NCBI GenBank assembly: GCA_046330795.1
Contig: JAXLSA010000009.1
Length of the DNA stretch: 64,000 nucleotides
Direction: 5' to 3' (one strand)
Origin: Mycobacterium sp.
GTDB lineage: Bacteria; Actinomycetota; Actinomycetes; Mycobacteriales; Mycobacteriaceae
The translations under genes were made by a program, and so were the position numbers. Positions 22,031-49,150 of this stretch are shown one piece after another. Under the pieces are notes generated by a model, which saw only the letters and a list, made by a program, of their open reading frames with translations, had not been told where the DNA came from and did not search any database. The first letter of the stretch is position 1; every line of letters starts with the position of its first letter.

Positions 22031-22467
22031 CCCAGCGCGCCCAACAGATACCGGACCGCGAACTCGTAGCCCTGCGCGCCGGCACCGGCGATCACCACCG
22101 CGGCCACCTCCGAGACATAGGAGTGCCGCCGGAACTGTTCGCGTGCATGGATATTGCTCAGGTGCACCTCGGCCACGGGCAGCGCCACCGAGCGCAGCGC
22201 ATCGGCGATCGCCACCGAGGTGTGGCTGTAGGCGGCCGGGTTGATGACGATGCCGGCGCAGTCGTCCCGGGCGGCGTGGATGGCGTCGATCAGCTCACCC
22301 TCGTGGTTGCTCTGCACGGCGCGTACCTGGTAGCCCGCTTCGGCGGCCGTCGCGGCAACCAGCGCCTCGATCTGTACCAGGGTGGTGGTCCCGTAGACCT
22401 CGGGCTGACGGGTGCCCAGCAGGTTGAGATTGGGCCCGTTGACGAGGAGCAGGCGGCGTTCGGTCAC
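22027..22467 (-). CDS. aroQ: Type II 3-dehydroquinate dehydratase
   Basis: [46 protein letters not shown]. Confidence 0.96.
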
Positions 22468-24293
22468 GTTCGTACGGTACCGACGCGGCCGCGCTGGGCG
22501 GCCAGGCGCACCGGGGCATTGTCGACGCCGTAGCCGTCGTAGCCACCGAACCGCTGCACGAACTCGAAGAACACCGACCCCACGGTGCGGGTGTAGAAGT
22601 GCACGAAATGCCCGTCCGGACCCCGGTCGTAGAGCAGGTCCAGCGCGCGCAGTTCCGCGACGTAGCCGTCGTCGAGGCCGAAGCGGCCGGACAGGTAGTC
22701 GTAGTAGTTGTCCGGCACGGGCAGGAACTCCAGGCCGGCCGCCCGGGCGGCGCGGGCCAGCGCGACGACGTCGTCGCAGCCGAACGCGACGTGCTGGGTT
22801 GGATCGGCGTCGTCGAGGACGTGCGGGGCCACGTTGAACGGGATCCGCACCTCGCCGGCGCCGGGTTCGGCGAGCGGTGTCGTTCCGCGAGCACGAGGCC
22901 CGGCGCAAACCCGACTGCGCAGCACCTGGCTGCGGATCAGGCCGGTCGGGCCCGGGACCTCGGTGGGCTCCTCGGCGTGCAGGCCGAAGACACTGGTCAG
23001 CAGCAGCGCCGCGTCCTGCGCGGTCTGCCAGGGCAGGCTGAGGTTGACGTGGTCGATGACGCGCACCGGCGAGGGCGTCTGCGGCATACCGTCGTGGAAC
23101 TCCCCCACCCAGGCCGGCTCGCTGGTCCAGAACACCTCGACTCCCCCGGGGACGGTCGTCGCGCCGAACGGCTGCTCGGAGGCGTAGGTCCGCCGGTAGG
23201 CCGTCGGCGCCATCAGTGCGCGGGCCCGGCCGGAGGTGGCCTCGGCGTCGGGCACCTGCAATCCGATCGCGGCCACCTGCGGGCGCTGATCGCGGGCCTG
23301 CTGCTCGTTGAGTACGACACGGGCCTGACCCGCGCACCACAGCGACACCGGCTTGCTGCGGTGCCGCCCGCGGGGCGTGAACCCGAGCTGCCCGAGCAGG
23401 ACCTCGACCTCGCCGGTGTCCTCGGCCTTGATCTCGACGAAGTCGAATCCGTTGGGCGGCTTGGCATCCGGGATGTCGATCAGGTGCAGTTCGTCCTGCA
23501 GCCAGCGCAGGGAACGCAGTGCGTGCACGGCAGTGCGCTGCGGGTCGGTCTGCCGGAAGGTGTCATTGAACACCTCGAGCGACAGCGGGCCGTCGTAGCC
23601 GGTGGCCAGCACATGCCCGACGAACGCCGTCAGGTCGAAGGCGCCCTCGCCGGGGAACAGCCGATGGTGCCGGCTCCAGGACAGCACGTCCATGCGCAGC
23701 GCGGGGGCGTCGGCCAGTTGCAGGTAGAAGATCTTGGCGCCGGGGATGTCCTCGATACCGGCCGGGTCGTGGCCGCGGGAGAGGACGTGGAAGCTGTCCA
23801 GGCAGACGCCGACGGCCGGGTGGTCGGCCAACTGCACGATGCGCCAGGCGCGCCGGTAGTCGTCGACGAAGCGGCCCCAGGCCAGGGCCTCGAAGGCGAT
23901 CCGGATGCCATAGGTCGCGGCCAGGTCGCCGATGCGCCGCAGCTGGCTGGCGGAGACGTCGTCGTCATCGACGGTGGCGGTGGCCCCAGCGTTGCTGCAC
24001 ACCAGGACGGTGTCGATGCCGAGGCGCTGCGCGGTGACGAAGGTGGCGCGGGCGCGGCGCAGGTTGTCGGCGAAGGTGGTCTCGTCGACGCCCTCGAGAT
24101 CGCGCAGCGGTTGGTAGAGATTCAGGGACAGGCCGAGCCGCGTCGCCAGGGCGCGGATCTCCTCGGGTGAGTGGTCACCCGCGATCAGATCGGGCTCGAA
24201 GATCTCGACGCCGTCGAAGCCGGCGGACGCGCACGCGTGCAGTTTCTCCACCAGTGAGCCGGACAGCGACACCGTCGCAATGGAGGTCCTCAT
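22464..24293 (-). CDS. 3-dehydroshikimate dehydratase (AP-endonuclease-2/TIM barrel + HPPD-like domain), QsuB/QuiC type
   Basis: [39 protein letters not shown]-terminal FFEFVQR.GGY.GYG. Confidence 0.88.
22860..22910. repeat. Intragenic palindromic element, copy A (inside the DHS dehydratase gene)
   Basis: 46/51 identical to 40233-40283; inverted repeat GCGCCGGG...CCCGGCGC. Confidence 0.85.
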
Positions 24294-24299
24294 CACAGC

Positions 24300-25017: not shown

Positions 25018-25078
25018 ATCTGTTCAGCAGTCACCGACACGACGTGCGAGTAGACCTCGCAGCCAGCACTGAACAGAT
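25018..25078. repeat. 61-bp REP/MITE-like element, copy 1
   Basis: ATCTGTTCAG...CTGAACAGAT terminal inverted repeats; same length as copies at 36012 and 49090. Confidence 0.8.
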
Positions 25079-36011: not shown

Positions 36012-36072
36012 ATCTGCTCAGCGCTGCCGGCGAACTCCACTCGCACAACGTCGCGCTGACGGCTGAACAGAT
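36012..36072. repeat. 61-bp REP/MITE-like element, copy 2
   Basis: ATCTGCTCAG...CTGAACAGAT; internal CCACTCGCACAACG shared with copy 3. Confidence 0.78.
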
Positions 36073-39047: not shown

Positions 39048-40580
39048 CTACTGGGCCTGATACAGCAGGCCACGCCCGATCGCCTCACGCACCACCGGCA
39101 GGGCCGCCTCGGCCAGGGCACCGGCGTCCACGCCGTGATGGGTGGCCAGCAGGTCGATCAGGGTGCCCAGTGGCACCTCACCGCGGCAGCCGGCCAGCAG
39201 CGCGCGGGACACCTCGTCGACGCCCAGCACCGCGGCGGGTCCGCCCGGGCGGCGCACCACGGCCGAAATCTGTTGCCACCCTTGCTCACCCGGCAACGAT
39301 CTCTCCTCCAGGAAGACCGGCGCCGTCGACAGCCGGGCGGCCAGCAGCTGCCCATCGGTGGTCTCGCGCAGGTACTCCCGGCCGGCGAAGAACGCCGCCA
39401 CCTCGGGTCCGGTCAGCGCCTCCCCGACGCCGGTGATCTCCTCGAAGAACTGCTCGGGGGAACCGGGCGCCGCCCGCAGCGTGATCATGCCCATGCCGAT
39501 GCCGGTGATGCCCTCGGCGGCGAACCAGTCCAGCCAGTCACCGCCGCGGCGGGCGGTCTCTTCGGGTGTTTCGCCGGCGTCGGCGGTCCACAGCGAGACG
39601 TAGCTGATCGGATCGGCCAGTTCGCGTTGCACCACCCAGGCGTGCAGGCCCGAGCCGGCGAGCCAGCCGGCAACCCGGTCGCGCCAGTCGGCACCGTCGC
39701 GCACGATCCAGTTGGCCATGATCTGGGCGGTACCACCGGGCGCCAGGTGATCGGGAACCTGCTCGATCATATTGCGGCACAACGTATCTCCGGCCATCCC
39801 GGAGTCCCGGTATTCGTAGTCGCGGGTGCCGGCGCCGACCACGAATGGCGGGTTGGACACGATCAGGTCGAAGCGCTCCCCCGCCACCGGCTCGAACAGG
39901 CTGCCGCGGCGCAGATCCCACGACATGCCGTTGAGCCGGGCGGTGGCCGCGGCGAGCGCCAGGGCGCGCTGGTTGGTGTCGGTGGCCACGATCTGCGCGC
40001 AGTGCGCGTCCAGGTGCAGGGCCTGGATGCCGCAGCCGGTGCCCAGATCCAGCGCCCGTCCCACCGGGGCCCGCACCACCGCCCGGGCCAGGGACACCGA
40101 GGCGCCGCCGATGCCGAGCACATGATCGGGCCGCACCGGTCCGGGCCGCGTCGCGGAATCCAGGTCGGAGACCACCAGGAAGTCGGCGGCGCCGTCGTTG
40201 TGCGGGCGGATATCCAGCGCGGCCCGGACCTCGCCGGGTTCGGCGAGCGGCGCAGTTCCGCGAGCGCGAGGCCCGGCGCCAACAGGCACGCCGGGTTCCA
40301 GAACTCCGTTGGCGACCAGCGCGTCGTAGGACACCGACGGCAGGGCGCGGGCGACGTCGTCGCGGGTCTCGGTGCCGCCGAGCAGGAACAGCCGGACCAG
40401 CACACCCAGCCGGCCGCCGGCCCGGCTGGCACGTTCGGCCGGCCACCACACCCCGCGGCCCAGGGCCGCCTCGGCATGCTCGCCCAGCAGGTCGGCCACC
40501 CCGGCAGTGGTGAAATTGGCCGAGCGCAGATCGCGGGCCAGCCCGTCGAGCACAGCAGGGTCGGCGAGCGTCGTCGTCAA
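39048..40580 (-). CDS. Class I SAM-dependent methyltransferase (NPPF type) carrying an in-frame insert
   Basis: LDLGTGCGIQAL, DLIVSNPPF; TTG start overlaps the SRAP stop. Confidence 0.88.
   Translation of the reverse strand: MTTTLADPAVLDGLARDLRSANFTTAGVADLLGEHAEAALGRGVWWPAERASRAGGRLGVLVRLFLLGGTETRDDVARALPSVSYDALVANGVLEPGVPVGAGPRARGTAPLAEPGEVRAALDIRPHNDGAADFLVVSDLDSATRPGPVRPDHVLGIGGASVSLARAVVRAPVGRALDLGTGCGIQALHLDAHCAQIVATDTNQRALALAAATARLNGMSWDLRRGSLFEPVAGERFDLIVSNPPFVVGAGTRDYEYRDSGMAGDTLCRNMIEQVPDHLAPGGTAQIMANWIVRDGADWRDRVAGWLAGSGLHAWVVQRELADPISYVSLWTADAGETPEETARRGGDWLDWFAAEGITGIGMGMITLRAAPGSPEQFFEEITGVGEALTGPEVAAFFAGREYLRETTDGQLLAARLSTAPVFLEERSLPGEQGWQQISAVVRRPGGPAAVLGVDEVSRALLAGCRGEVPLGTLIDLLATHHGVDAGALAEAALPVVREAIGRGLLYQAQ
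40233..40283. repeat. Intragenic palindromic element, copy B (inside the methyltransferase gene)
   Basis: 46/51 identical to copy A; its terminal GCCGGGTTC (40233-40241) recurs as a direct repeat at 40290-40298. Confidence 0.85.
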
Positions 40581-43656: not shown

Positions 43657-43666
43657 ATCTGTTCAG
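43657..43666. repeat. Half-site of the 61-bp repeat family
   Basis: ATCTGTTCAG between convergent rsgA and desA3; no partner arm seen. Confidence 0.45.
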
Positions 43667-49089: not shown

Positions 49090-49150
49090 ATCTGTTCAGC
49101 CACCCGTGCGAGCCCCACTCGCACAACGCCGCAGCCAGCACTGAACAGAT
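49090..49150. repeat. 61-bp REP/MITE-like element, copy 3
   Basis: ATCTGTTCAG...CTGAACAGAT; CGCAGCCAGCACTGAACAGAT shared with copy 1. Confidence 0.8.

Follow-up and report, generated by a model that had tools for sequence, protein, structure and literature searches.

Why should two unrelated enzyme genes of a mycobacterium carry, in the same orientation and the same reading frame, what looks like one and the same short piece of DNA? The question is raised by a 64,000-nucleotide stretch of Mycobacterium sp. (GenBank assembly GCA_046330795.1, contig JAXLSA010000009.1), here called "the window", which corresponds to C9:34492-98491 of a 4.55-Mb assembly of 15 contigs (68% G+C, 93.6% complete). 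An original prediction, made from the letters of the window, had proposed that a palindromic mobile mini-element, similar to the Rickettsia palindromic elements (RPEs), had inserted in frame into a dehydroshikimate-dehydratase-like gene and a methyltransferase gene. The analysis presented here leads us to regard both copies, with a probability of roughly 0.8, as members of a non-autonomous interspersed minisatellite that resembles mycobacterial interspersed repetitive units (MIRUs) and behaves in coding regions much as RPEs do.

Two Copies of One Unit

Copy A (minus strand, 22859..22915) is a single 57-bp unit, consisting of a core at about 22859-22906 and a spacer-like GTCGGGTTTG at about 22907-22915, and it makes up 19 codons of the reading frame of the dehydratase gene (22464..24296, minus strand). 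Copy B (minus strand, 40232..40288), likewise one 57-bp unit, comprises a core at 40232-40279 and the spacer TGCCTGTTG(G) at 40280-40288, and makes up 19 codons of the methyltransferase gene (39048..40580, minus strand); the corresponding nhmmer matches lie at C9:57351-57396 (E=8.5e-13) and C9:74724-74769 (E=3.6e-11), respectively. Recomputation of the identity between 22860-22910 and 40233-40283 returned the 46/51 positions that had been claimed, a resemblance far beyond chance, and the other features read off the letters were also found: both copies are on the minus strand, in one frame and inside long open reading frames (ORFs), an 8-bp inverted repeat, GCGCCGGG/CCCGGCGC, is present in copy A, neither copy has a stop codon in any of the six frames, and the G+C content at third codon positions (GC3) is 0.60-0.67 in the inserts vs. 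0.88-0.92 in the host genes.

That these are true in-frame insertions is indicated by the clean gaps that appear when either protein is compared with its orthologues, a comparison for which the original prediction had called. In the dehydratase-like protein, which measures 602-610 amino acids (aa) according to the start codon chosen, a sugar-phosphate-isomerase (TIM barrel) domain is fused with an HPPD-like one. The protein has 576 relatives, the best of which (77-80% identity) are in Mycolicibacterium, and an exact-protein look-up returned no record for it; its alignment with 16 orthologues (50-80% identity) contains a single clean 17-aa gap exactly at the repeat. For the other host (501-510 aa), a class I S-adenosylmethionine-dependent methyltransferase of the DUF7782/DUF7059 family, whose homologues in Mycolicibacterium and Mycobacterium spp. 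carry the names methyltransferase or DUF7782, the gap amounts to 16-18 aa against nine, and then six further, orthologues. The sister cluster of this methyltransferase (P0023, 87% identity) does not have the insert (VVEP|EVRAALD), whereas all eight same-species alleles, coming from independent NCBI, ENA and JGI assemblies, do, so the insertion must be a lineage-specific event that has become fixed in the species and not an assembly artefact; mobilisation in this lineage, as originally proposed, is borne out to that extent. The empty site in another genome of the genus (G217) reads GAGCCCGCGGG, and directly to the left of copy B (40289..40298, minus strand) there is a direct repeat, GAACCCGGCG, which matches the unit's final 10 nt (40232-41) at every position (10/10, gap 9), at a distance of exactly 57 bp; we read it as target-site homology or duplication.

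Three further hosts can be added to these two. In comparison with solved MutM structures from the Protein Data Bank (PDB), residues 70-91 of the Fpg protein are unmatched and chain residues 68-69 are contiguous; NuoN shows a 20-residue gap at the unit against M. smegmatis 8e9g_N (780 bits); and an AccD-like carboxyltransferase, which holds its copy in antisense, differs by a gap of exactly 19 aa (57 nt) from seven congeners (77-89% identity). Insertion is therefore confirmed by alignment for five hosts (dehydratase, methyltransferase, Fpg, NuoN and the AccD-like protein). CydB, NirD, an ECF sigma factor, an esterase, a MocR-type regulator and a KstD-like flavoprotein are candidate hosts recognised by sequence (for the KstD-like one, the PDB alignment is fragmented around the insert), and in a type I polyketide synthase (C5:278622-278783, locus L127) and a flavin monooxygenase (C5:114136-114296, locus L128), a three-unit array provides the last ~55 codons, those of a putative C-terminal tail, with the stop only a few codons beyond.

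A Dispersed Family of Tandem Units

The genome-wide count that the original prediction had suggested gave 76 copies at 48 loci of the 4.55-Mb genome (nhmmer, iterated to convergence), which makes the pair part of a dispersed repeat family; a 30-nt core pattern matched 74 times in this genome, as opposed to 0 times for the reversed control. The unit of ~57 bp (19 codons) is composed of a conserved core of 47-48 bp, (T)CGCCGGGCCTCGYGCTCGCGGAACNNCNCCGCTCGCCGAACCCGGCG, and a variable spacer of 9-10 bp, and has terminal inverted repeats of 7 bp (CGCCGGG/CCCGGCG). At 19 loci, two to four units are arranged head-to-tail, repeating every 55-58 bp (57 in most cases), and the remaining loci hold single units; the spacer is constant inside an array, differs among loci, and fits GGTYCAGTTG loosely.

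According to gene calls made with our own, crude, codon-usage caller (training set, 1294 long ORFs of this genome), 15 loci fall within genes (12 sense and 3 antisense), 16 are between co-oriented genes (the element having the same orientation as the genes at 9 and the opposite one at 7), 8 are between convergent and 7 between divergent genes, and 2 are unresolved. About two-thirds of the loci are thus intergenic, and intergenic copies frequently start 0-25 nt past a stop codon. The lack of any orientation bias outside genes argues against a strand-specific RNA role, e.g., that of a terminator. At C1:914258, an ORF running through the unit starts at an ATGA overlap, in phase with a downstream GTG, and at C4:330767 (minus strand), apparently within a coding sequence, there is a perfect 19-nt match to the right half of the unit, CCGCTCGCCGAACCCGGCG, with the left half absent; this half-unit could be either a copy remnant or a ready-made target site.

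The element had been called palindromic, and this description stands for the inverted repeat and falls short for the structure: the unit can fold into an imperfect hairpin with a 16-pair stem, and neither window copy, on either strand, has a significantly better fold energy than shuffled sequences do (z = -0.3 to -1.6). A single stem pair covaries (C:G 24, G:C 5, U:A 3, unpaired 11; alignment A2, columns 14 and 56), which makes a structured-RNA reading weak, and no Rfam family matched in a scan of the window and six repeat loci. The variable base of this covarying pair is, at well-preserved loci, the base of the flanking direct repeat; it looks as if the 3' arm had served as the template for correcting, or copying, the 5' arm.

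Empty and Filled Sites

One set of junctions comes from RocD (ornithine-oxo-acid transaminase) of uncultured Mycobacterium sp., alleles of which, within one 90% cluster, hold 0, 1, 2 or 3 units at a single site, this being a Glu-Pro-Gly (GAACCCGG). The empty allele reads ...ACC GAA CCC GGG GAG CAG ACG..., the unit enters at ACC GAA CCC GG|G GAG CAG, and the filled alleles read ...GAACCCGGCG-GAGCAGATG-core-GAACCCGGCG-ATCAGACC..., from which it follows that a unit entered a pre-existing Glu-Pro-Gly site and that the copy number then changed in whole-unit steps. At the AccD-like locus, the empty site GTCGGCGGCCTGGTC stands against a filled ACCGGCGG[57 nt]ACTGGTC, with a 6-9-bp repeat that includes the end of the unit. 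Across filled sites, the direct repeats measure 6-19 bp and include the 3' end of the unit (CCCGNCG, at best GAACCCGGCG); at 16-18 of 45 loci, the left flank matches the unit's own last 10 nt at 7/10 or better with a spacing of exactly one unit, and the likeness between spacer and right flank is greater within loci than between them (0/5000 permutations).

Reading Frame and the Predicted Loop

Sense copies in genes use, at 11 of 12 loci, one common frame (the chance of at least 11/12 under equal frame odds is ~5e-5), and the exception, located 7 codons past a predicted start, probably precedes the true start; all three antisense copies read GGFGER..SAS.RP. Both frames turn up again at 36 loci from 13 other species, fetched and scored with the frame disregarded, and also in database proteins found via the peptide (a TetR regulator, RocD, CydA, a GH5 protein and one unknown protein). 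The alternatives would be a hydrophobic SPGLVLAE (frame 1) or an Arg/Cys-rich RRASCSRN (frame 2). That the genic copies are whole units explains why the reading frame is kept, and a possible source of the choice of frame is to be found in the target: in ordinary long ORFs of this genome, 17 of the 22 instances of GAACCCGGCG are read as GAA-CCC-GGC, 29 of 33 on the antisense strand of long ORFs fall in one frame, and these preferred frames are exactly the two used by genic copies.

As to what the insertion does to the protein, each genic copy is predicted to add a floppy loop of 16-19 aa. In an AlphaFold2 model of the dehydratase (38 sequences; predicted local distance difference test (pLDDT) 87.5, predicted template-modelling score 0.86), the insert (residues 456-471) has a pLDDT below 50 and no secondary structure, and is situated between strands 444-453 and 476-481, which suggests an extended hairpin turn; the surface-loop position that had been anticipated thus takes the form of a low-confidence loop between two modelled beta-strands.

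Distribution among Species

A BLAST-level search of 40 relatives, being near-empty, had suggested that the family is unique to this genome, a notion overturned by pattern and covariance-model searches. When 400 genomes of the genus were searched exhaustively with the pattern, 11 others proved to have it, with 21 matches in G313 (a 67%-complete metagenome-assembled genome), 10 in G217, 6 in G121 and 1-2 in the rest, and with the covariance model the carriers came to 17 of 401 genomes in total, this one included; the occurrence is patchy, and the carriers comprise complete genomes (G336, G121 and G041 among them) as well as [Mycobacterium] wendilense.

Orthologous genes hold units at different places in different species. 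A double-TetR regulator gene has a three-unit array just upstream of its start in the present genome (C3:280642-280802, locus L126), and its orthologue in another species (P0001) has a three-unit array inside the coding region, after the helix-turn-helix domain; these are independent insertions. Similarly, CydA holds units in one other species, and CydB holds a unit in this genome. The distribution is one of repeated, lineage-specific insertion.

Neighbouring Repeats

A second repeat family of ~52-65 nt, GAAATGGCG..ACTCG..GCCGAAACGTACGTTTCGGCGTG, which contains a perfect 20-bp palindrome, occurs elsewhere in the genome. Its ~110 nhmmer matches, many of which represent the palindrome detected on both strands, reduce to ~70 loci (e.g., C1:365358-365511, C2:743806-743984 and C7:56337-56490; loci L123, L124), located just past stop codons and often as inverted pairs between convergent genes; it has no Rfam match. 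MIRU-like units are fused directly to this family at six loci (L125; C2:111210, C2:387991, C2:831274, C2:851514, C3:70921 and C5:263850), and its usual 5' flank, CCGAGATCGAC, resembles the 3' end of the MIRU-like unit, CCGAACCCGAC. These likenesses hint that the two families may be related, or that one may seed the other.

In the window itself, there is also a third repeat, exactly 61 bp long, whose terminal inverted repeats measure 10 bp (ATCTGTTCAG/CTGAACAGAT); it is present at 25018-25078, 36012-36072 and 49090-49150, with a half-site near 43657.

Origin and Mode of Spread

How might such a unit have reached 48 loci? Since no dedicated transposase was found, we propose that host enzymes are responsible. 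A site resembling the 3' end of the unit would prime the copying of a unit from a donor, by replication template switching or by microhomology recombination, and the arrays would then lengthen and shorten via slippage or unequal recombination. As GAACCCGGC mostly represents Glu-Pro-Gly codons in coding DNA, insertion at it would put one frame of the unit into translation; the stop-free Pro/Gly/Ala/Arg-rich peptide would form a disordered surface loop, which could be tolerated at turns between secondary-structure elements, with purifying selection clearing other insertions. That copying is primed by short homology to the 3' end of the unit and carried out by host replication/recombination functions, followed by slippage, is a proposal to which we would give somewhat less than even odds. 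The fuller picture of a self-propagating, frame-preserving minisatellite that needs no transposase, is primed at GAACCCGGCG (Glu-Pro-Gly) and seeds 19-residue disordered loops preferentially at Glu-Pro-Gly turns is offered tentatively, and we lean towards doubting it as a whole.

Four other origins have to be weighed. The original prediction itself had named, as what would undo it, a single gene-conversion event or a faulty assembly, by which two unrelated genes would have been linked, and the initial pair taken alone could be so explained; 76 copies, eight independently assembled alleles with the insert and 16 other genomes of the genus with the family leave a probability that is practically nil. 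A deletion derivative of an insertion sequence (IS), i.e., a miniature inverted-repeat transposable element moved in trans by the transposase of its parent, would account for the 7-bp terminal inverted repeats, the fact that both empty and filled sites exist, and the many copies flanked by direct repeats, which would then be target-site duplications. The unit, however, is merely 47-57 bp, head-to-tail arrays of identical units are the rule, and the direct repeats, of anything between 6 and 19 bp, contain the conserved end of the element in every case, which is not what a fixed-length duplication of arbitrary targets would look like; moreover, no longer element with both ends at IS-like spacing was found, and a search for a parent IS through orphan left and right ends yielded chance-level three-mismatch matches in coding DNA and a few degenerate copies, which leaves this origin unlikely.

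Less probable still, in our estimation, is a linker or loop module selected at the protein level and spread by gene conversion, the intergenic copies being decayed coding remnants. One frame per orientation and the recurrence of the peptide in unrelated proteins of several species are what such a module would leave behind, but two-thirds of the loci are intergenic and in both orientations (9 same vs. 7 opposite between co-oriented genes), conservation of the DNA extends to synonymous sites and GC3 is atypically low, the antisense copies encode another peptide, and the frame in which the GAACCCGGCG motif occurs accounts for most of the frame bias. Finally, the short GC-rich hairpin and the many copies just past stop codons, some of them between convergent genes, recall the repetitive extragenic palindromes (REPs) and bacterial interspersed mosaic elements (BIMEs) multiplied by the REP-associated tyrosine (RAYT, Y1) transposase, for which genic copies would be accidental. 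Such an origin is highly improbable given that the Y1 transposase domain PF01797 has no match in this genome (6 of 14 control genomes scored positive), that the fold energy is no better than that of shuffles with one base pair covarying, and that head-to-tail arrays with spacers differ from the REP/BIME layout.

The MIRU-like minisatellite spread by host functions has, nevertheless, its own weak points. Its mechanism of spread is one that we infer, and, with the genome 93.6% complete, a mobilising gene could have escaped detection. A good left direct repeat is seen at only ~40% of the loci, and copy A is among the unconvincing ones (4-6/10 on the left, and only CCGGCG|CCGGCG on the right side); the likeness between spacer and right flank is strong at only ~8 of 43 loci, those with 13-19-bp direct repeats, and could be explained, too, if an unknown enzyme had duplicated a long stretch of target. 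With CCCGGCG, the short motif, taken by itself, the observed frame is expected at only 48%, so either the recognised target is longer or the bias owes something to selection on the peptide as well. Translation through the inserts is what we infer from intact frames and conservation, and the gene calls were checked by homology for the named verified hosts, the others being approximate.

Comparison with Known Repeats

Full-text literature searches with the core DNA and the peptide gave no match. By anatomy, the family appears closest to the mycobacterial MIRUs, units of 40-100 bp at ~40-50 loci per mycobacterial genome (Supply et al. 1997, summarised in PMC3184786, PMC12548453): it shares with them the unit size and number of loci (57 bp, 48 loci) and a host of the Mycolicibacterium/Mycobacterium group, the head-to-tail arrays whose copy number varies between strains or alleles (here, 0/1/2/3 in RocD), the empty and filled sites with short direct repeats, the imperfect terminal inverted repeats, in one clear case (C1:914258) an ORF that runs through the unit and abuts a neighbouring gene, and the lack of any known transposase. 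It departs from them in that only 9 of ~33 intergenic loci are co-oriented in putative operons (7 are opposite and 15 are between convergent or divergent genes), and in that ~15 loci are inside genes, core enzymes included, which is not part of the MIRU descriptions in PMC3184786 and PMC12548453. The covariance model of the present family matches only 17 of 401 genomes of the genus, and the likeness to MIRUs is one of anatomy.

The RPE analogy put forward originally survives in part. As with RPEs, a dispersed repeat is found in frame in unrelated conserved protein genes and adds a peptide that would be tolerated at the surface; RPEs, however, are palindromic elements of about 100-150 bp (more closely, ~105-146 bp) from Rickettsia that are not tandemly arrayed (Ogata et al. 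2000, cited in PMC3184786), whereas the present unit is 57 bp long, arrayed, mostly intergenic (by stop codons) and actinobacterial, and has no sequence relationship to them. REP/BIME with RAYT, BOX, RUP and SPRITE of Streptococcus pneumoniae, and BRE of Bordetella (PMC3184786, PMC3733652) are likewise small GC-rich hairpin repeats near gene ends, with some members fused to or inserted into ORFs, but the family described here has no RAYT, no Rfam match, and head-to-tail units with spacers. Coding variable-number tandem repeats (VNTRs), or intragenic minisatellites, resemble it in the in-frame expansion and contraction of 57-bp (19-codon) units (0-3 in RocD, and the three-unit C-terminal extensions); ordinary ones are locus-specific, whereas here one unit has been dispersed to 48 unrelated loci. 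We regard the family as a dispersed, frame-preserving coding minisatellite of environmental mycobacteria with a recognisable target motif.

Significance

To our knowledge, the way in which MIRU-type repeats move has been unclear ever since their description, and the present family offers several handles on their dispersal: many young copies, empty and filled alleles of one gene, and a recognisable target motif. A further lesson is that core genes for respiration, DNA repair and metabolism can harbour an interspersed repeat of mycobacteria. The N- and C-terminal extensions provided by units can confuse gene callers, and the units could serve, as coding VNTRs, as strain-typing markers for environmental mycobacteria, while the uniform loops of 16-19 residues amount to a natural experiment in the tolerance of proteins to insertion. 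Should transposase-free priming at Glu-Pro-Gly sites prove true, the family would be the first tractable model of MIRU-type dispersal and would, in nature, supply core enzymes such as NuoN, CydB, Fpg, the AccD-like carboxyltransferase and RocD with loop insertions.

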